From IMG/VR virus record IMGVR_UViG_3300034357_000077, positions 1 to 33,627 of that record: a stretch of DNA of 33,627 nt; one strand, given 5' to 3'. The notes under the pieces are model-generated. The model saw only the letters and a program-made list of their open reading frames with translations, was not told the origin of the DNA and searched no databases. Position numbers and translations under genes: made by a program. How positions within the stretch are numbered: position 1 is the stretch's first letter; the number at the start of each line of letters is the position of its first letter. This stretch comes from a virus (Duplodnaviria; Caudoviricetes). This document shows positions 4,809 through 32,261 of this stretch, in pieces.

Positions 4809-4835
4809 TCAATAACGAGAAAAAAATAAAATAAA

Positions 4836-5783
4836 ATGAGAAATTTAAGAAACACAAAATTAAGTACAGTAAACACGATTAACACGACTTACGCTGGGGA
4901 GTTCGCTGGTAATTATATTGCAGCTGCAATTTTATCTGCAAACACTATTGCAAATAATGGAGTAACAGTAAGACCAAATATTAAGTTTAAAGAAGTAGTT
5001 AAGACTTTAACTTCAACTAATATTATTCAAGATGCAACTTGTGATTTTGATGATAGCGGAGTAGTAACACTATCAGAGAAAGTATTAACAGTACAAGAAA
5101 AACAAGTCAACTTACAACTTTGTAAAACACCATTTCAATCTGATTGGGATGCAGTACAAATGGGTTATAGCGCATTTGATGTAATGCCATCTTCATTTTC
5201 TGATTTCTTTATCGGAAAAATTTTAAAAGACGTTGCATTAAACACTGAAAACTTTTTATGGAATGCTACAAACGGATTTCCTAAATTGTTAGTTGACGAT
5301 GGCGCAATTAAAGAAACTTCTGTTGCTATTGATAGTACAAACGTATTAGACAAAATGAAAGCAGTAGTAGCTAAATTGCCACAAGCATTATATGGTCGTG
5401 AAGATTTGAGATTATTTGTATCTCAAAAAGTAGCTAAAGCATATATCTCGGCTTTAGGAGGATTTGGAGCATCTGGTTTAGGTTCAAATGGTTTTGCAAA
5501 TCAAGGAACAACTTGGTACACAAACGGAACTGCACTTACTTTTGAAGGAATTCAAATCTTTGTTGCAAACGGATTAAATGCAGTTGATAGTGGAAACTCT
5601 ATGGTATTAACAACTATTGAAAACCTTTACTTCGGAACTGGTTTAATGGATGACTATAACCTAGTAAAAACCATTGATATGCAAGACATTGACGGATCGA
5701 AAAATGTTCGATTTATAATGAGATGGACGCAAGGTCTTCAAGTAGGATTTGGTGCTGATTCAGTAGTATTCTCATCATTGTAA
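4836..5783 (+). CDS. Major capsid protein
   Basis: 315 aa with TTYAGEFAGNYIAAAILS, QVNLQLCK and NLYFGTGL...DGSKNVRFIMR motifs that I recognise from Bacteroidetes-phage MCPs. Followed by a strong terminator. Confidence 0.8.
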   Translation: MRNLRNTKLSTVNTINTTYAGEFAGNYIAAAILSANTIANNGVTVRPNIKFKEVVKTLTSTNIIQDATCDFDDSGVVTLSEKVLTVQEKQVNLQLCKTPFQSDWDAVQMGYSAFDVMPSSFSDFFIGKILKDVALNTENFLWNATNGFPKLLVDDGAIKETSVAIDSTNVLDKMKAVVAKLPQALYGREDLRLFVSQKVAKAYISALGGFGASGLGSNGFANQGTTWYTNGTALTFEGIQIFVANGLNAVDSGNSMVLTTIENLYFGTGLMDDYNLVKTIDMQDIDGSKNVRFIMRWTQGLQVGFGADSVVFSSL

Positions 5784-8595: not shown

Positions 8596-9099
8596 ATGGC
8601 AACAACATTATTCATAACACCAAAAGACTTAAAGTCAAATACCATATTGAACGGAAATGTGGACACTGATATTTTTATTAATTTTATCAAGATTGCACAA
8701 CAGATGCACGTTCAAAATTATCTAGGTACTCAACTTTACAATGCTATTACTACTAAAATAACTACTGCAACTTTGACTGGAGATTATTTAGATTTAGTAA
8801 CAGATTATATACAGCCAATGTTAATTCATTATGCAATGGTAGATTATTTACCTTTTGCAAATTATCAAATTAGAAACGGAGGAGTGTTCAAACATCGGAC
8901 TGAAAATTCAGAAAGTACAACCAAAGATGAATTAGATTTATTGGTTCAAAAACACAGAACATTTGCAGATTTTTACACTAAAAGATTTGTAGATTATATG
9001 GGAATTTATGCATCAAGTTTATTCCCAGAGTACTGGCAAAATAGAAATGATGATATGTATCCAGACAGAAATCCTAGTTCAGTTAGCTGGGTGCTATAA
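8596..9099 (+). CDS. Head-tail connector/adaptor protein (putative)
   Basis: NGNVDTD...IKIAQQMHVQNYLGT.LY pattern, directly after the portal gene. Confidence 0.6.
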   Translation: MATTLFITPKDLKSNTILNGNVDTDIFINFIKIAQQMHVQNYLGTQLYNAITTKITTATLTGDYLDLVTDYIQPMLIHYAMVDYLPFANYQIRNGGVFKHRTENSESTTKDELDLLVQKHRTFADFYTKRFVDYMGIYASSLFPEYWQNRNDDMYPDRNPSSVSWVL

Positions 9100-9100
9100 G

Positions 9101-9205
9101 TAATTTAACGCCATTTTTAGGCATTTTAAGGAACTTTCTACAGTTTCTATATTAGTTGTTAATAATTGAGAGAACGTTAAAAATCCTATTGTGATGATAG
9201 ATAGA
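9101..9205 (+). repeat. Dispersed two-box intergenic element, copy A
   Basis: gcattttaaggaact at 9121 and ttaaaaatcctat at 9177. Homologous to 21469-21537 and 32146-32215. Confidence 0.75.
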
Positions 9206-9339
9206 GAGAGCAAAAAATGTAAAATCAAAAATGATGATTTTCAACATAAAAATGAAAAATTGAACATAAAAAAGACATATAAAATAAAAAACTCCAATAT
9301 TAAAAAAATGATGGAATACTTAAAAATTGAAGAATCAAA

Positions 9340-10357: not shown

Positions 10358-10786
10358 ATGGCTTTTAATCCACAACCTAAAACAAAAAAAGTAAAAAAAC
10401 CAAGTAGATCTTCATTGGTTAAAAAACTTGATACAGAATTTAGCATATATGTTAGAAAGCGATTTGCTGTTGGGGGGAAAGCAAGTTGTTTTACTTGTGA
10501 TAAAGTAGACGATTGGAATAAATTACAATGTGGACATTTTCAAAGTAGAAGACATTATGCAACACGCTGGGATGAAAATAATTGTCAAGTACAATGCGTG
10601 GGTTGTAACGTGATGAGATATGGAGAGCAGTATAAGTTCGGAATTCATTTAGACCAGATATACGGAAATGGTGTTGCAGTTAGTTTATTAAACAAAGCAA
10701 GAAGTGAATTTAAGATTAAAGATTTTGAATTAATTGATTTAATAGAGTATTATAAAAACAAGAATAAATTATTAGATTTTAAGTAA
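10358..10786 (+). CDS. ninG: NinG/Rap-like recombination endonuclease
   Basis: LD..FS.YVR, CFTC, QCGHF.SR....TRWDE.NC..QC..CN. Confidence 0.8.
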   Translation: MAFNPQPKTKKVKKPSRSSLVKKLDTEFSIYVRKRFAVGGKASCFTCDKVDDWNKLQCGHFQSRRHYATRWDENNCQVQCVGCNVMRYGEQYKFGIHLDQIYGNGVAVSLLNKARSEFKIKDFELIDLIEYYKNKNKLLDFK

Positions 10787-10801
10787 AAATATCTATATTT
10801 G
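10772..10801 (+). promoter_or_regulatory. Bacteroidetes sigma-A-like promoter (-7 box TATATTTG)
   Basis: TAnnTTTG at 10794-10801; the upstream -33 box is imperfect (TTAG). Confidence 0.45.
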
Positions 10802-10865
10802 CGAGACTTATGTTCGATATTTGCGGTACTCGGTCATAATTTTGTTTTAGTGAACAAAGAAAATT

Positions 10866-10898
10866 CGCCTATGTTTTAGACATATGGCGTTTTTTTTT
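10866..10898 (+). terminator. Intrinsic terminator
   Basis: cgcctatgt...acatatggcg hairpin followed by a long T run. Confidence 0.75.
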
Positions 10899-10950
10899 GC
10901 GTTTTTTTTGGTAAAATGTTTTTTTTATTAAAAAATTGTTTGTTTGTTTG

Positions 10951-11162
10951 CTTCGGATTTGATTGACGTATTTCAAATCTGGAGGTGTTGACATTCCGAG
11001 AATTGTCAGTCAAGAACAGACTCTAAAAATCGAACTGCGAACAACAGTCAGTCGAGAGACCAAGTGTTCCACGAGGCCAAATAGGTAGTATGTGCGAGAC
11101 AGAGCGATTAAAAGCGTTATTTGTCGGTTATCAGTATGTGAATATTGGACTAGGAAGAAAAC
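10951..11162 (+). ncRNA. Candidate structured ncRNA or leader upstream of the hammerhead
   Basis: GC-richer non-coding stretch with several hairpins: 10951-10984 (12 bp with GU pairs), tgacattc/gaattgtca, gtc-GAGA-gac and cagtat-GTGA-atattg (GNRA loops). Confidence 0.45.
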
Positions 11163-11212
11163 GTGTATATGGATGTATAGCCATACTGATGAGTCACAGA
11201 ATGACGAAACAC
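11163..11212 (+). ncRNA. Hammerhead ribozyme, type III
   Basis: GTGT-A|TATGG-atgtatag-CCATA-CTGATGA-GTCA-cagaa-TGAC-GAA-ACAC. All core nucleotides and stems I, II and III are present; predicted cleavage is after GUA at 11167. Confidence 0.9.
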
Positions 11213-11226
11213 TAAAACTTAAAATT

Positions 11227-11523
11227 ATGACACAGATTGAGATTGAAAAATTGTTTGTTGATAAATTCAACAAGTTTACGGAGCCACAACAGAGAGTTAT
11301 TAAGTATTTGCTTGAAGGTGCTAAACTAACTACAGTTAATAAACACTATGCAAGTGGTGGCGATTATATGTGGATATTACACGAAGGTGGAAATCCTTGT
11401 TATGCTGGTTCGGTTTATAAAGCATTTTGGGGAATAGGTTATACTATTAAAAAACTTACCGGAGTGGAAGTTAAGATGGGAGAATTTTATTATGTAGATA
11501 CAAACTTTAGAGTAACTTATTAA
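11227..11523 (+). CDS. Hypothetical early protein; start revised from 11092 to 11227
   Basis: ATG 11227 follows an A-rich leader. The upstream in-frame part overlaps the ribozyme. Confidence 0.6.
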   Translation: MTQIEIEKLFVDKFNKFTEPQQRVIKYLLEGAKLTTVNKHYASGGDYMWILHEGGNPCYAGSVYKAFWGIGYTIKKLTGVEVKMGEFYYVDTNFRVTY

Positions 11524-11803: not shown

Positions 11804-11890
11804 ATGAAAACATTTTTAAGCAAACAGAAGTATCAAGTTTACGCAATAGGATTTATTGCATTATATTTTTTAACTAGATTTTTTTATTAA
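11804..11890 (+). CDS. Small membrane peptide (28 aa), absent from the ORF track
   Basis: MKTFLSKQKYQVYAIGFIALYFLTRFFY fills the gap exactly; single hydrophobic helix. Confidence 0.45.
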   Translation: MKTFLSKQKYQVYAIGFIALYFLTRFFY

Positions 11891-11914: not shown

Positions 11915-12151
11915 ATGAAAACATTAAACAATCAATTAGGAAGTCTTATCAGTATTGGACTAGATTTAACTTTATTTTGGAACATAAGTATCAGCCAGTA
12001 TGATATATCATTACTTGGTAAGTATAGTAAAAATACAGAAAAACATTTATTACGTAAAGGGTTTATAAAGTGTGATATACTTTATGCCGACAATGATAAC
12101 TTTGTAGAGTTTAAAAATGATATTTGTAGAATTGCTTTAACTAAAGACTAA
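11915..12151 (+). CDS. Hypothetical early protein
   Basis: 78-aa ORF preceded by the AATCACTAAAACAAA motif. Confidence 0.5.
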   Translation: MKTLNNQLGSLISIGLDLTLFWNISISQYDISLLGKYSKNTEKHLLRKGFIKCDILYADNDNFVEFKNDICRIALTKD

Positions 12152-12564
12152 TGAAAAAATTTGAATTAAAAACATTACAGACAGACTTTCCTAACGTAAA
12201 AATTAATAATAGTACAGATGCAGTTTCTGTCATTAGAAACTTTTATGGAGACGATATAGAGCAATATGAAAGTTGTTTTATATTGCTTTTAAACAACGCT
12301 AATAGAACAGTAGGATATGCTAAAATTAGCCAAGGAGGTGTAACTGGAACAGTAGTCGATGTAAGATTGATTGCAAAGTATGCAATAGATAGTTTGGCAA
12401 CTGGGGTTATTATGGCGCATAATCATCCCAGCGGAAATCTAAATCAAAGTGAAGCAGATAGTAATATTACTAAAAAAGTAAGTAATGCATTAAAATTATT
12501 TGATATAACTTTAATCGATAGTCTAATACTAACTAAAGACGATTGGAAAGTAATAGATTATTAA
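12151..12564 (+). CDS. radC: RadC-like JAB/MPN domain protein
   Basis: E.....LLLN..N, ISQGG...TVVDVR.I, AHNHPSG...SEAD...T......LK...I.LID. Confidence 0.85.
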   Translation: MKKFELKTLQTDFPNVKINNSTDAVSVIRNFYGDDIEQYESCFILLLNNANRTVGYAKISQGGVTGTVVDVRLIAKYAIDSLATGVIMAHNHPSGNLNQSEADSNITKKVSNALKLFDITLIDSLILTKDDWKVIDY

Positions 12565-16773: not shown

Positions 16774-17176
16774 CGAAACATCACATCACAAATGGGAGCA
16801 AGGTATTATCCACGTATTAAATTTAGATGGCTGGGATTTAACTTGGACTGGGGGTGCTATGGAGCATTACGATGCTAAAGGTAAAACACCGAAAGGATTT
16901 GAATGCGTTGTAGAGTTTAAATTACGTCACGCATATTATCCGACTAAAGTATTAGAAAAGTTTAAATACGATAAGCTTATGGAAGAAAATTGTATGAGGT
17001 TTTATTATGTATTCGATAGCAGAGGAAATTACCTTTATCATTTAGATAGTTTAATTTTACCTACTCCAGTTATGATTAATTGTCAAGTTAATTATAAGTT
17101 TGGAAATAATCATCTAATAGACAAACCTTGTTATATGATTTCAGAAAGTCAAGCCAGTATAATAAATAAGTATTAA
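16766..17176 (+). CDS. PD-(D/E)xK nuclease-like protein (start probably 16766)
   Basis: YDA.G......VEFKLR...Y....LEK.KYDKL pattern. Confidence 0.55.
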   Translation: MSNETSHHKWEQGIIHVLNLDGWDLTWTGGAMEHYDAKGKTPKGFECVVEFKLRHAYYPTKVLEKFKYDKLMEENCMRFYYVFDSRGNYLYHLDSLILPTPVMINCQVNYKFGNNHLIDKPCYMISESQASIINKY

Positions 17177-17179
17177 AAA

Positions 17180-17209
17180 TTTGTTATTAAAAAAAATATA
17201 TTACCTTTG
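17180..17209 (+). promoter_or_regulatory. Bacteroidetes sigma-A promoter (TTTG ... TACCTTTG)
   Basis: TTTG at 17180-17183 and TAnnTTTG at 17202-17209, upstream of ATG 17235. Confidence 0.65.
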
Positions 17210-17234
17210 AAAAATAATCACTAAAAACAAAATT

Positions 17235-17453
17235 ATGAAAAACAGAAAACAAATGTACATTAATGAAACAGAATGTTTAAGCCAGTCTAATGGAGAACTT
17301 TATTTAGAAGGGGAATTCGGTTCGCTGGTTTGGAATTGTGAAACTCTATTCACAGATTTGCCACATATTATTAGATTAGTATATGAAGCCAGAGCAGAAA
17401 CAGATAAGCGTATCAAAGAACAGATTGAAGAAATCACAAGACTTATATCCTAA
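17235..17453 (+). CDS. Hypothetical protein
   Basis: 72-aa ORF after a promoter and the AATCACTAAAAACAAA leader. Confidence 0.55.
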   Translation: MKNRKQMYINETECLSQSNGELYLEGEFGSLVWNCETLFTDLPHIIRLVYEARAETDKRIKEQIEEITRLIS

Positions 17454-19139: not shown

Positions 19140-19695
19140 AATAGAAATTGGTAAATTAAAAAATACCGAATACAATCCTAGAGTTATTGATACATTCAAG
19201 TATGAAAGTTTAAAGAAGTCTTTGATTGATATGCCATATATGTTGATAGTTAGACCATTAATCGTAGATGAAGATTTCAATATTCTGGCTGGTAATATGC
19301 GTTACCGAGCGTGTATGGATTTACAATACAAAGAAGTATTTGTAAAACAGATATTAGATTTAACTGATAATCAAAAAAAGGAATTGATGGTTAAAGATAA
19401 TATTTCTTATGGAGAATGGGATGAACAAATTTTAGGAGATAACTTTGATACTACGCTGGTAAATGATTGGCTAGGTAAAGAGATTATAGATTATTCCGCT
19501 TTGCTTTACGAGGACGTATCTGATGAGATTGATGCTTTGCACGACAATATTAAAAAAGCAATTCATATAAAAATTAATGGAGACTTTGAAAAAGCACAAG
19601 AATTAGAGAAGCGTTTTAAGGAACGAAAAATATACATAGGACAGTTACTTATAGATAAACTAAAAGAAGTTAAGAAAGCGTATGAAACGAATTGA
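19126..19695 (+). CDS. ParB/Srx N-terminal domain protein 2
   Basis: YNPR, RPLIVDED..ILAGNMRYRA, VKDN.SYGEWD; paralog of the previous gene. Confidence 0.8.
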   Translation: METFKIEIGKLKNTEYNPRVIDTFKYESLKKSLIDMPYMLIVRPLIVDEDFNILAGNMRYRACMDLQYKEVFVKQILDLTDNQKKELMVKDNISYGEWDEQILGDNFDTTLVNDWLGKEIIDYSALLYEDVSDEIDALHDNIKKAIHIKINGDFEKAQELEKRFKERKIYIGQLLIDKLKEVKKAYETN

Positions 19696-20464
19696 TTTAC
19701 AGCAAGTTGAACACAATAGAAAGATTGGAGATATATGTGAATACATTGAGCCTAACCTAACAGAAGATAGTTTATTCTATTCCGATGGGGAGTTGATAGG
19801 GTTTTATATCCGAGACATATCGAAGTATAGCAAAAAACTTTCAGACTTGATTGCTATTGCAAATAAAGAATTATTATCCGATGCAGTTCCAAAACAAATG
19901 ATGAAGCGTAGTAGTGGTATAAGAGATAAAGCAAAGGATGTTAGTCAATTCTCAACTATACTTGGAGCCATAGCACCTAAACCACATATGGGAAGAAACT
20001 ACGCAAGTATTAGTTCCGTTCACTATCATAAGAGTGCAAAGACATTTGTAAAAGCAATGTTACTGGCTTCAGAAGAAAGTGCTAAACTAATTCAAGAGAT
20101 AGCACCTAAAATTTATGAAGAGCAGTTAGAGCAAATGAGTAAAGTAAAAGACCAATGGAAGTTCGGTAAGTTGTTTACAAGTTCTATTTCAAACTATAAT
20201 ATATCTGCTGGGTTTCATATTGATAACGCAAACATAAAAGGATGTTGCAATGTGATAATTTGTAAGAGACAAAACAGTAAAGGAGGATGCACAACAATTC
20301 CAGACTATGGAACAACAGTTGATAGTTGTGATAATAGTATGCTGGTTTATCCAGCTTGGAGAAACGTACACGCTGTAACACCAATTATCCCTTTGTCAGA
20401 TGATGGTTATAGAAACACATTAGTGTTTTATCCTTTAAAAGCATTCCTAAATGAAAACGTTTAA
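19682..20464 (+). CDS. TET/JBP-family 2OG-Fe(II) dioxygenase
   Basis: FTSSISNYN..AGFHIDNAN (HxD), GG.T..P, HAVTPI (distal His) and RNTLVFY (2OG-binding Arg). Confidence 0.8.
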   Translation: MKRIDLQQVEHNRKIGDICEYIEPNLTEDSLFYSDGELIGFYIRDISKYSKKLSDLIAIANKELLSDAVPKQMMKRSSGIRDKAKDVSQFSTILGAIAPKPHMGRNYASISSVHYHKSAKTFVKAMLLASEESAKLIQEIAPKIYEEQLEQMSKVKDQWKFGKLFTSSISNYNISAGFHIDNANIKGCCNVIICKRQNSKGGCTTIPDYGTTVDSCDNSMLVYPAWRNVHAVTPIIPLSDDGYRNTLVFYPLKAFLNENV

Positions 20465-21449
20465 TGCATTATCATTCGACAGAAGTAAGAGCCGATGGGA
20501 AGAACATTTATATGATCTTACTCCAGTTGAAAAAATAGGAGACATATATTTTAAAAGAGAAGATAAATTCGCACCACTTGGATTTGGTTCTATAAACGGA
20601 AGTAAATTAAGACAATGTATTTGGCTGGTTCACGAGTGGGTTCGTACTAAAAATATTAGAGGAGTTGTAAGTGGAAGCGTAATAGGTTCGCCACAACATC
20701 CATTCATATCTTCAATCTGTAAACACTATAATATTGGATGTCTGATAGTTACGGGTTCAAAAAATTATCAGTCACATAAAAATATGCAGTTAGCAGAAGA
20801 AAATGGAGCGCAATTCTATGTTACTAACATTGGTTATGCAAAAGCATTACAAAGTAAATCATTCAAGTTAGCAAAGTTATTACCTAACCACGAGGTACTG
20901 GAGACAAACATTACAGTTGATGAAAGAATTAATAGTCCGGAAAGAGTAGAAGCATTTCACAAAGTAGGAAGTTATCAAGCAAACAATATTCCAGACCACA
21001 TAGAAACTTTAATAATACCTTGCGGAAGTTGTAATTCAGTTACTTCTATTCTGTATGGTATTGCTTTAAAGAAGCCAAAATCATTGAAGCGTATCTTACT
21101 TATGGGAATTGGAAACAACGGAAGTTATCATTTAGATTACATTCCACGTAGGTTAAAAATAATTAGCGGAGTGCTGGGTATAGATTTGAATAGTAAGTTT
21201 GATTATACATTTTTGAAAGACAGAAACAAAAACGGCATAGAGGTTTTACATCACAATTTAAATGGTTCGGGTTTCTGTACTTACGAATGTTGGATGCCAT
21301 TTTCATATAGCGGAATAGAATTACATCCGAGATATGAAGGTAAGGTATTTAATTATATGAAGTCAAAGCCAGACGATTTTGAAAAGTATATGAACGCAAA
21401 GACATTATTTTGGGTTGTAGGTAATGAGCCTACGTTTATTCCAACATAG
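20451..21449 (+). CDS. PLP-dependent enzyme (fold type II, ACC deaminase/D-cysteine desulfhydrase-like), probable DNA-base amino-acid decarboxylase
   Basis: LTPVE...FKRED......INGSKLRQ (PLP lysine), IPCGSCNS glycine loop, LHPRYEGK and LFWVVG. Confidence 0.75.
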   Translation: MKTFNALSFDRSKSRWEEHLYDLTPVEKIGDIYFKREDKFAPLGFGSINGSKLRQCIWLVHEWVRTKNIRGVVSGSVIGSPQHPFISSICKHYNIGCLIVTGSKNYQSHKNMQLAEENGAQFYVTNIGYAKALQSKSFKLAKLLPNHEVLETNITVDERINSPERVEAFHKVGSYQANNIPDHIETLIIPCGSCNSVTSILYGIALKKPKSLKRILLMGIGNNGSYHLDYIPRRLKIISGVLGIDLNSKFDYTFLKDRNKNGIEVLHHNLNGSGFCTYECWMPFSYSGIELHPRYEGKVFNYMKSKPDDFEKYMNAKTLFWVVGNEPTFIPT

Positions 21450-21468
21450 TCACGAGAGGTAAAATAAA

Positions 21469-21550
21469 GCATTTTAAAGGACTTTTATATTCTGATAGGT
21501 ATTTTGTTATAAACTTTTAGAGCATTAAAAATCCTATCGATAAGATAGAT
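21469..21550 (+). repeat. Dispersed two-box intergenic element, copy B
   Basis: gcattttaaaggact at 21469 and ttaaaaatcctatcg at 21525. Confidence 0.75.
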
Positions 21551-21563
21551 AAGAAGACACATT

Positions 21564-22661
21564 ATGATTGGAAGATATTGCGATATAAATAAAGAAACTG
21601 AAGAGAAAGAATTACAATACGGATTAGATTTCAGACTACCTAAATACAGACGAGAAGTGTTTTTAAGGTTTTATGAGTTCCATTTAAAAAACAAAGGTCA
21701 CGCTGGGGCGGTGTATTATGCATTTCCGTTTATCTTTGAAAAGTTACAAATGTCGAGAGAACAAAAACTATGGTTCGCTTACATTAACGGATGTACTCAA
21801 AATGTAATTACTACATATCTTATTTTCGAGCAGATACCAAACTTGAAAGAAATAGATATGCCAAAGTTCAGTAAATGGTTCCGAACAAATTATGACAAAC
21901 TTGGCTGGGATACAGACAGAAGATATGTAAAGAATGTATTTGAAACTTGCATAGAGAATTACATACACGTTTTAAACGGAAGGACACAAGAACAATTTTT
22001 TACAATGAGAGATGAGCCAGAGCATAAATTTACAAACTTCAATTCACTTTGGAATACAGTAATAAACAACTTTCATACCTTTGGTAGATTGGCAACCTTT
22101 AGTTATCTCGAGTTCCTTAAAATTGCTGGGTTGAATATCGATTGCGATAGTTTATTTTTAGATGACATTGGAGGTTCCAAATCACATAGGAATGGATTGT
22201 GCAAAGTGCTGGGGCGAGATGATATGGATTGGTATAAGACTGACTATACATATTCTAAAGAGCAGTTAGATTGGTTAAAAGAAGAGGGAAGAATACTTTT
22301 AGAAGAAGCAAGACAAAGATTTCCACACGAGGATTTATCATACTTCACATTAGAGACTACGCTTTGTTGTTACAAGTCTTGGCACAGACCAAACAGAAGA
22401 TACCCAAATGTATATAACGATATGTTTTACGATAGGATAAAATATGCAGAGAGCAAATGGAAAAAAAAGTTACCGATATTTTGGGAAGCAAGAAAAAAGT
22501 ATCTTCCAAAAGAATTAAGATTAGAAGATAATAAAGCAGACTTCGGAGTTCATAAGACAAAACAAAATCATTACAGATTAACTGGCCAAGTAATAATGAT
22601 GAACAACGATTGGGAATGCTTTGATAATAATTATAATGATTACGTAAAAAACAGACAATGA
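21564..22661 (+). CDS. Amino-acid:DNA transferase (aGPT-Pplase family)
   Basis: DTDRRY.K, FGRLATFSYLE (HhH-glycosylase-like), SHRNGL and LETTLC.YK motifs; flanked by a PLP enzyme and a kinase. Confidence 0.75.
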   Translation: MIGRYCDINKETEEKELQYGLDFRLPKYRREVFLRFYEFHLKNKGHAGAVYYAFPFIFEKLQMSREQKLWFAYINGCTQNVITTYLIFEQIPNLKEIDMPKFSKWFRTNYDKLGWDTDRRYVKNVFETCIENYIHVLNGRTQEQFFTMRDEPEHKFTNFNSLWNTVINNFHTFGRLATFSYLEFLKIAGLNIDCDSLFLDDIGGSKSHRNGLCKVLGRDDMDWYKTDYTYSKEQLDWLKEEGRILLEEARQRFPHEDLSYFTLETTLCCYKSWHRPNRRYPNVYNDMFYDRIKYAESKWKKKLPIFWEARKKYLPKELRLEDNKADFGVHKTKQNHYRLTGQVIMMNNDWECFDNNYNDYVKNRQ

Positions 22662-30250: not shown

Positions 30251-32124
30251 AAGTAAAGGTAAAAGTCCAGACTGGCGAAGCCACATCGAATATTGATAAG
30301 CTAGGAGAAAGTTTTAATAAGCTTGATAGTAACGTAAAAAAGACACAAGAAAAAACAACCGATTACGGAAAGCAAATCATAAATAATAGTCAACTTACAT
30401 CAAAGTTAAGTCAAGCTACTGGCGGTCTTTCTGATGCCTTTGTAGGAGCAGTTAAAGGAATAGATTTGACAAATCTTTCACTTAAAGGTTTGAAAGGTGC
30501 AATTATGTCAACTGGAGTTGGACTTCTAGTTATAGCATTGGGCGAATTGATTACGATACTGGCTGATTTTTTTAGTTCTGAAAAGAAAAGTGAGCAAGCT
30601 TTAAATTCTATGACTAGAGCATTGGACGATCAAGCCGAAGCATTTGATAGAGTTTCAAGTAGTGCGCAATTTGCAAATGAAATTAATATGAAGTATGCAA
30701 AGGCAAATGGAGCATCAAAAGAAGAACTTAAAAAGACTAACGATGCATATTTAGCATCTGAAAAAAAACGTATAGATGAAGAATTAAAATTGCTAGAAAT
30801 GGAAAATTTAGCAGTACTTCAAAATGACAAATTAAATGAAGAAGATAGAGCAAAAGCTTTGCAAGACGTTGATGCAAATATTAAAAAGTTACAAGGGTTA
30901 AAAGTAAAAAATGTTAGAGATACCATAAGTGCAGATGCGGACTTTTACTCACAACAAAAGGAAGCTGAAAAACAAGCATCAGACAAAGCAAACGAAAAAA
31001 AGAAAGCTGATGGGGAGAAAGCAAAACAAGAACGTCAGCAACAACTTGATGCGTTAAAAAACCTAGAAAAAAAGTATGCAGATGAAATAGAAAATCTAAA
31101 AGATAAGACAGAGCAAGACAAACTTAATAGGCAAAAAGAACGTGCCATAGAGGAACTGGATGCTATAAAATTATCTGCAAAAGAGAAAGCCAAAGCTAGG
31201 GAATTAATCGAAGCTGATTTTAGACAAAAGCAATTAGATTTAGATAAGTCACACGCTGACAAAGTACTTGCGTTACAAAAGAAATTAGAAGATGACAAAG
31301 CTTCTTTGACTGCTACAACTGACGAGCAAAAGTTAATGTTAAGTCAAGAGAAAGCGATGAAGCAACTAGAAGTAGATTTAGCAAATATAAATGCTACAGA
31401 AACTGAAAAGGAAAATGCTAGAAGGTTGTTAAAAGAAAGTTTTGATTTGCAAAACAAAGAAGCAAAATTGCAAAAAGATGAAGCTGATAGGAGTGAAGAA
31501 ATTGCAATGCTTGAACTTAAACTAGAAGATGAGAACGTTTCTTTTGAAGATAAAAAACAACTTATATTAGATAGGGAAGCTTTATTGTTACAAGACAAAA
31601 ACCTTACCGAAAGTGAAAAATTAAGAATTGAAAAAGAAAGTGCTGATGCATCTAAAAAAATAGATGAAGAACAGTACAATGCAAAAATGGCATTACTTGC
31701 ATCAACTTCACAAGCATTATCTACTGCCAGTGATATTGTAGGCAAAGAAACTGGAGCGGGTAAAACCTTAGCAATAGCTTCGGCATTAATGAACACTTAT
31801 CAAGGTATATCAGCTGGGGTTAAATTAGGATATCCACAAGCAATTCCAGCCGTTGCTATGGCTTCGCTTACTGGTTTCGCAGCAGTAAAAAACATTATGT
31901 CAGTAAAAGTTCCAAAAGGTGGAGGTGGCGGTAGTGGAAATGCAATATCAGCTGGCACACCATCGGCACCAAGCTTTAATGTAGTAGGTAGAAGTGGCGC
32001 AAATCAAATAGCTGAAAGCATTGGTAAAAATACACAACCAGTAAAAGCGTATGTCGTTGGTGGAGATGTAACAACACAACAAGGTTTGAATAGAAATATA
32101 GTTCAAAACGCTACTCTAGGATAG
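30235..32124 (+). CDS. Tape measure protein (putative)
   Basis: 629 aa with LKGAIMSTGVGLLVIALG, a long K/E coiled coil and a C-terminal PVKAYVV..DVT..Q. Confidence 0.7.
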   Translation: MAQEVEVKVKVQTGEATSNIDKLGESFNKLDSNVKKTQEKTTDYGKQIINNSQLTSKLSQATGGLSDAFVGAVKGIDLTNLSLKGLKGAIMSTGVGLLVIALGELITILADFFSSEKKSEQALNSMTRALDDQAEAFDRVSSSAQFANEINMKYAKANGASKEELKKTNDAYLASEKKRIDEELKLLEMENLAVLQNDKLNEEDRAKALQDVDANIKKLQGLKVKNVRDTISADADFYSQQKEAEKQASDKANEKKKADGEKAKQERQQQLDALKNLEKKYADEIENLKDKTEQDKLNRQKERAIEELDAIKLSAKEKAKARELIEADFRQKQLDLDKSHADKVLALQKKLEDDKASLTATTDEQKLMLSQEKAMKQLEVDLANINATETEKENARRLLKESFDLQNKEAKLQKDEADRSEEIAMLELKLEDENVSFEDKKQLILDREALLLQDKNLTESEKLRIEKESADASKKIDEEQYNAKMALLASTSQALSTASDIVGKETGAGKTLAIASALMNTYQGISAGVKLGYPQAIPAVAMASLTGFAAVKNIMSVKVPKGGGGGSGNAISAGTPSAPSFNVVGRSGANQIAESIGKNTQPVKAYVVGGDVTTQQGLNRNIVQNATLG

Positions 32125-32230
32125 GTAATTTAAGCCACTTTTTAGGCATTTTAAAGGACTATCTATGTCGTTGTAATAGTTTTGTTATAAAATTGAAATG
32201 CGTTAAAAATCCTATCGCAATGAGAGTTAA
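32125..32230 (+). repeat. Dispersed two-box intergenic element, copy C
   Basis: taatttaagccactttttaggcattttaaaggact (box at 32146) and cgttaaaaatcctatcg (box at 32203). Confidence 0.75.
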
Positions 32231-32235
32231 GAAAT

Positions 32236-32261
32236 ACAAAAATAAAAATTTATACGTTATA
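32236..32261 (+). promoter_or_regulatory. Putative phage late promoter, copy 5
   Basis: acaaaaataaaaatttatacgttata upstream of ATG 32267. Confidence 0.65.

Follow-up and report, generated by a model that had tools for sequence, protein, structure and literature searches.

Hammerhead ribozymes that precede the first gene of an early viral transcript have a direct precedent in HHphage. In the haloviruses HF1/HF2 (Perreault 2011) this ribozyme is located 13 nt before the first ORF of the early transcript, and the 5′ end of the RNA maps within 3 nt of the cut; for HHphage and for clustered prophage hammerheads, which share the 13–14 nt spacing and the early polycistronic transcript with the locus described below, a role in mRNA processing has been proposed (PMC3088659). 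The engineered RiboJ likewise places a hammerhead and a hairpin just before the ribosome site and removes the upstream sequence (PMC7536230), and self-cleavage in the 5′ UTR of fungal and plant RNA viruses has been tied to translation (PMC13725137). Phages P1/P7 produce C4, an antisense RNA that represses nearby phage genes (PMC8198154). The purpose of phage self-cleaving ribozymes is regarded as an open question (PMC6765202).

Here we analysed a hammerhead and its surroundings in a 33,627-nt stretch of viral DNA (IMG/VR record IMGVR_UViG_3300034357_000077; hereafter the window). The ribozyme itself is ordinary. However, HHphage has a variant core and belongs to an archaeal virus (PMC3088659), whereas the window combines a canonical core and a likely Bacteroidota host with a leader built of modules and with a small-RNA target that overlaps the ribozyme. 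RiboJ treats the upstream RNA as waste (PMC7536230), whereas in the window this RNA is conserved, and the RNA virus ribozymes are mostly type I and act in eukaryotic cap-independent initiation (PMC13725137), whereas the window is from a DNA phage. The modular, optional leader is undescribed; a literature search confined mostly to freely available main texts found no paper describing the leader or the small RNA. An earlier note on this DNA, which had found the ribozyme, overlooked the structured upstream RNA, the optional cassette formed by leader and ribozyme, and the overlap between the last strand of the ribozyme and the small-RNA target.

The window is a near-complete phage genome, the ends of which overlap by 338 nt with 94.7% identity. 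A PHROG search identified portal, terminase, endolysin, NinG, ERF, SSB and primase/helicase genes; a tRNA search of the window found no tRNA, and none of its 54 ORFs matched an integrase or repressor. Among cultured phages, the gene in the capsid position matched only Nonlabens phages P12024S/L (26%), and the window phage is likely a Flavobacteria phage. Its A-rich start regions, together with boxes of the type TANNTTTG, a promoter consensus taken from F. johnsoniae (PMC6847099), would be compatible with a Bacteroidota host. The NinG-family gene (10358–10786, + strand; PHROG 5034, PF05766) at the end of the upstream block was used as an anchor for finding relatives. Elsewhere, 19682–22661 contains a probable DNA base-modification cluster with a Tet/JBP-like oxygenase (below cut-off), a weak PLP-enzyme match and an amino acid:DNA transferase (PF18724); the PHROG label of the first gene of this cluster differs.

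All elements of a type III hammerhead are present on the + strand at 11163–11212, at the positions assigned to them in the earlier note. Stem III (GTGT 11163-66/ACAC 11209-12) is open, stem I (TATGG 11168-72/CCATA 11181-85, with an 8-nt loop) and stem II (GTCA 11193-96/TGAC 11202-05, with loop CAGAA) are closed, and the core segments CTGATGA (11186-92) and GAAA (11206-09) surround the three-way junction. Compensatory changes in stems I–III, affecting 7 of 13 pairs in 13 aligned sequences, support this topology. The triplet at 11165-67 is GTA (GUA), an NUH triplet with a U16.1–A15.1 pair; the type III identity is borne out, and the predicted cut between A11167 and T11168 fits the intact motif. 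Self-cleavage of this kind yields an mRNA with a 5′-OH and an upstream RNA with a 2′,3′-cyclic phosphate (PMC6765202), and the predicted products in the window would follow from this known chemistry.

Searching both strands of the window turned up no second type III match, and no other hammerhead core of any type is present in it. None of 1000 Markov-resampled windows contained an equally good match, and 2 of 1000 contained a looser one; the isolated segment folds as a hammerhead, with an energy that is by itself unremarkable (z −0.02). The Rfam covariance-model check proposed in the earlier note was run and gave a full-model match to Hammerhead_3 (RF00008, clan CL00010; 33.9 bits, E 1.2e-4), with which the window sequence shares its full length, core and three stems. 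The window ribozyme does not reach the curated gathering score of 48.5 bits, and its loop II is a 5-nt CAGAW. A scan at the gathering threshold therefore returned no match for the ribozyme and a standard Rfam scan overlooks it, which limits the Rfam label and not the ribozyme class. On the sequence evidence, 11163–11212 is confirmed as a real, complete type III hammerhead motif of a known kind.

The core combined with loop II CAGAW was used as a pattern to define the ribozyme subclass, and it gave 100 viral and 10 metagenome loci. These represent 93 distinct contexts, with 89 type III ribozymes that have a full stem II, 2 type I ribozymes and 2 non-ribozymes; after stricter de-duplication 81 contexts remained, and 78 of them were parsed as type III (L147, among the 78, reads better as type I). 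Stem II is fully Watson–Crick in 77 of the 78, with 18 different 5′ strands, and the cleavage triplets are GTA in 45, GTC in 31 and GTT in 2 (the parser demanded GT). Loops I and II, whose tertiary contact is needed for fast cleavage at low Mg2+, are both present in the window; loop I holds TGT in 22 of the 78 members, and loop II was preset by the search pattern. The host phages span 24–69% GC. Cellular genomes, searched with a pattern that was slightly less strict, yielded 42 matches, 30 without stem II, 5 with stem II only and 7 of type III, and the subclass thus appears virus-enriched (89/93 type III in viral and metagenome contexts vs 7/42 in cellular genomes). Because the 10 relatives that matched RF00008 among 20 loci were all below the gathering cut-off, the subclass is under-annotated. 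Among cultured phages, 68 records of elemo Flavobacterium phages match it; in the one inspected, the ribozyme precedes a small gene and leader modules of a second type are located upstream. In an elemo phage (L298, 2560–2810) the leader is preceded by a second −7 box and by a stretch that is richer in GC and looks non-coding, over annotated hypothetical ORFs of the opposite strand; L150 has stretches of the same kind. Two type III copies each were seen in L217 and L338, and the larger phages L144, L141, L157, L165, L177 and L189 have extra hammerhead-like matches, mostly type I and all under Rfam cut-offs, downstream among small early genes.

The 3′ end of the window ribozyme (11212) is 14 nt upstream of ATG 11227, and the element does stand at the head of the early block. 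The earlier note had dismissed the N-terminal extension of the downstream ORF as false, and we agree: the 143-aa reading from GTG 11092 was rejected, with in-frame stops within the same 135 nt in 6/6 homologues and an open frame only in the window. The first early gene (11227–11523, + strand, 98 aa) has no PHROG match, no Pfam match above cut-off and Atlas matches of 0.78 or less; its homologues are 73–89% identical, and the gene occupying this slot varies among relatives. Within its translation start region (11210–11229, + strand) a tag, CACTAAAA, begins inside stem III, and adenines are found at −3, −6, −12 and −13, which boost initiation in F. johnsoniae (PMC6847099). Further downstream are an unlisted 28-codon ORF with a hydrophobic stretch (11804–11890; similar short ORFs occur in L075, L081, L221 and L236) and an early RadC-like JAB domain protein (12151–12564; PF04002, E 1.5e-31). 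JAB proteins can counter ubiquitin-like defence.

A candidate early promoter (10920–10950, + strand) aligns with canonical boxes in relatives. Its −7 position reads TTTGTTTG (10943-50) without the A of TANNTTTG, and since A-11 is nearly invariant in F. johnsoniae promoters (PMC6847099), the start site and the promoter strength are uncertain. A second early-type promoter (17175–17237), with a canonical −7 box at 17202 directly before the tagged start 17235, has neither leader nor ribozyme and is an internal control. Three intergenic stretches (9096–9218, 21469–21555 and 32121–32243) are ~75% alike and are possibly late promoters or leaders.

Between the candidate promoter and the predicted cut is a structured leader RNA of ~213 nt (10955–11167, + strand; start placed 4–5 nt after the −7 box), the predicted 5′ cleavage product, which has 41% GC compared with 32% for the window. 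Its 5′ modules (10951–11037), derived from single-sequence folds of 7 homologues, comprise a hairpin (10951-84), a bulged hairpin (10989–11008), a small hairpin (11009-21) and, at 11017-37, an internal-loop element similar to modules found in the second leader type; paired changes in L075 and L079 were read by eye. The adjoining H-type pseudoknot (11034–11069; stem 11034-37/11045-48, loop 11039-43 pairing with 11065-69) has 4 of 5 pairs changed on both sides and 100% of cells paired in 13 sequences. Three hairpins follow (11070–11147), at 11070-94 (AAATA loop, and an internal loop that we take to resemble a bulged-G motif), 11095–11126 and 11132-47, and 13 of the 21 pairs in this region (helices 3–7) are compensatory.

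Over the 3′ part of the leader and the ribozyme together, 96.9% of cells were paired in the 13 aligned sequences and compensatory changes affected 24 of 43 pairs, a count reached by 0/500 shuffles and compared with 1–5 pairs in slid controls, where the tested structure was drawn from the same 13 sequences and the shuffles ignore kinship. The number of further pair types in this alignment was not above that of shuffles (108/500). Compensatory changes affect 8 of 15 pairs in the second leader type (11 sequences), and leader modules reappear, as read by eye, in differing combinations in small and large phages. The covariation indicates that the leader is a conserved, modular structure under structural selection. 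Its modules are absent from Rfam 15: matches in the window at E up to 10 were weak and unrelated (best E 2.3) with none of note in the leader, the elemo region reached E 0.8 at best, and the leaders of 20 loci had no match at E up to 1. Readings of the leader as a second ribozyme, as preQ1-like or as guanidine-III-like found no Rfam support and were rejected.

We favour, with moderate confidence, a model in which the ribozyme is a separator, parting the ~213-nt folded leader RNA from a 5′-OH, hairpin-capped early mRNA. According to this model, host RNA polymerase would start near 10955, the leader would fold into a string of small modules, a structure supported by covariation, and the ribozyme, judging by its intact core and conserved stems, would fold and cut co-transcriptionally after 11167. 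The mRNA would then begin with a 5′-OH base paired in stem I, making it a poor substrate for 5′-monophosphate-dependent decay, and loss of the 4-bp stem III would leave the start region open. The least supported steps are that the leader, ending in a cyclic phosphate, would survive as an RNA in its own right and would act independently, most likely by protein binding. A small RNA (see below) may subsequently bind over the start region thus freed and dampen the translation of early genes, as complementarity and covariation suggest. RNase J degrades the glmS cleavage product. The passage on degradation of this product in PMC6765202 speaks only of cellular RNases. In the present case a 5′-OH end is more likely protective than destabilizing, because searches for RNase J in 41 genomes from the phylum of a Bacteroidetes-labelled MAG, and in B. 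thetaiotaomicron at E 1e-20, found none, and because RNase E, orthologues of which occur in Bacteroidetes, mostly requires a 5′ monophosphate (PMC10989914). Against the separator model weigh the non-canonical −7 box, the predicted anti-core fold and the dispensability of the cassette (both described below), and the hammerheads of other phages (L129, L181 and L188, and extra type I-like matches), which lie between genes without a comparable leader.

The ribozyme could instead serve the mRNA alone, as RiboJ does, by providing a uniform, stable 5′-OH end and an open start, with the leader being a by-product or an aid to transcription before the cut. The latter role we liken to that of put RNA (HK022). 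We consider this fairly unlikely, although it would account for the fixed distance to the ATG across unrelated phages: 71 of the 78 subclass members are located 10–26 nt upstream of an ATG, compared with 6.7% of random positions, which are mostly coding and overstate the contrast. It would also fit the negative outcome of the RNase J searches and the occurrence, in larger phages, of several hammerheads lying between small genes that follow one another (also PMC3088659). RiboJ moreover normalizes 5′ UTRs, and uncleaved mRNA has been modelled as decaying faster (PMC7536230). Against it stand the structural selection on the leader and the arrangement of the loci. Among 65 low-GC loci a −7 box was found within 400 nt in 46 and was not located in 19; in 45 of the 46 the box is at least 107 nt upstream of the ribozyme, and none of the 46 shows a bare promoter–ribozyme–gene arrangement (the closest canonical box in the window and in two close relatives is that of the small-RNA region). 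Furthermore, L078 has the same first gene starting 36–41 nt after the box, with no cassette.

Leader and ribozyme were also found to be coupled when two leader modules were used as queries blind to the ribozyme. These yielded 17 and 10 loci, and an intact ribozyme follows at 13/17 and 8/10 of them, respectively; the remainder are 2 decayed ribozymes and 4 matches outside the leader context, and 2 contigs were new.

Upstream of the candidate promoter is a candidate small RNA gene (10794–10899, + strand; RNA about 10806–10899), with a canonical −7 box (10794–10801), a terminator hairpin (10866-89) followed by a T run, and a seed (10833-52). The seed pairs over 20 bp, with a 2-nt bulge, with 11210-31, thereby spanning the 3′ strand of stem III, the start region and the AUG. 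The tag CACTAAAA occurs in 7 copies on the + strand, 6 of them ahead of early ATGs, and its sole complement lies in the seed. When 53 window starts were ranked by pairing with the seed, 11227 came first and all six tagged starts were in the top 8, as were the untagged starts 23450 and 4377. For 26 of 27 phages (L238, for which no start was picked, was dropped) own seed–start pairs beat permuted pairs (0/20000), in a matrix where the first start was mis-picked for the window and L182, lowering the signal. The own-pair signal of the 18 tagged phages alone is weak (p 0.03), and 14 of these 18 have a seed T run equal to the A run of their tag; in 8 distant phages with other tags, the own start ranks first of 26 in 6, second in one and 16th in one. 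These results point to a candidate small RNA antisense to the tag of six early starts, with seed and tags that appear to covary across relatives. Because it is also present in 7 relatives without the ribozyme, the small RNA is a separate element sharing the address. As a putative phage-made antisense RNA with its own promoter and terminator and complementarity to phage mRNA leaders, it resembles C4; unlike C4 (PMC8198154), its apparent targets are about six start regions that share a tag, and 10794–10899 has no Rfam match to the C4 family sequence or structure. We rejected, on inspection by eye, the idea that the seed belongs to a leftward mini-ORF, the ORF length not being conserved and promoter and terminator pointing rightwards.

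Another possible reading is a regulated switch, in which the cut is controlled by the leader (through a helix at 11128-38, or a ligand or protein on a module) or by the small RNA invading stem III. The strand 11128–11138 (+) can pair over 11 bp with 11181-91, comprising the 3′ strand of stem I and the core, as a possible inactive fold, and equilibrium folding buries the core in this helix, 7.2 kcal/mol better than the ribozyme fold. Of 13 type A leaders, 5 are likewise predicted to have the core paired throughout, and the seed covers 11210-12 of stem III with a co-fold gain of about 17 kcal/mol. However, 24 homologues have an anti-core helix of only 4–9 bp, and this helix shows no adjustment to changes in the ribozyme, including those in stem I; the hairpin 11132-47, which competes with it, is 100% paired and emerges earlier during transcription; and the small RNA persists in the seven ribozyme-less relatives. 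Because the same folding model disfavours the covarying fold in 13/13 homologues, by 7–26 kcal/mol, it is a poor guide here. We regard a switch as improbable.

The cassette is patchily distributed. At 21 junctions of this clade it is intact in 12, decayed in 2 and empty in 7, and 13 protein-found relatives include 4 intact and 2 decayed copies and 7 without leader and ribozyme; most of the 80 relative loci end short of the early junction, and 14 were inspected. At least 7 different first genes lie downstream of the 12 intact ribozymes. Because 7 of the 13 protein-found relatives are without it, the cassette is dispensable, and because in two relatives the leader survives beside a decayed ribozyme, the cut is not always needed (in L079 and L080, at about 4820–4900, the leader is intact and the start tag is duplicated just downstream). 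After the promoter, L220 and L222 keep only the last ribozyme bases and L236 only the first leader bases, scars that look deletion-like. Taken together with the module searches, the comparisons indicate that leader and ribozyme form an optional cassette and travel together.

Such a pattern might reflect a nearly neutral or selfish RNA cassette spreading by recombination, with a ribozyme that merely makes it harmless to the downstream gene. The endolysin tree requires 7 cassette changes and rejects a single clade (p-AU 1.7e-7), modules are common to much larger phages, and the deletion-like scars also fit. Nevertheless, we judge this quite improbable: compensatory changes across divergent phages require selection, neither a mobility gene nor a flanking repeat was apparent in the window, and a second marker gene, with 4 changes, does not reject a single clade (p-AU 0.43). 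Finally, the window copy might be inactive or barely transcribed and decaying like those of L079 and L080, a reading that we consider very improbable. Its −7 box is non-canonical, its anti-core helix is the longest of 25 leaders and decayed ribozymes exist in this leader type; yet its core is intact at every position, the five closest copies differ in loop I, N7, the outer pair of stem III or, in compensatory fashion, a pair of stem II, and the same box variant occurs in the cassette-less L236.

Only tentatively do we extend the separator model to a broader one, in which Bacteroidota phages may build a mix-and-match RNA effector from small folded modules behind an early promoter, have it matured by the hammerhead and release it within the first minutes of infection to bind host proteins involved in defence or RNA handling. 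The last strand of the ribozyme would also be the tag by which a small RNA finds early genes and later turns them off, so that the timing circuit would consist of RNA alone. The locus offers natural controls, since the same or equivalent genes are preceded in some phages by an intact cassette and in others by a decayed one or by none, and a cultured model is available in the elemo Flavobacterium phages, which have the same ribozyme subclass and, in the one inspected, related leader modules.
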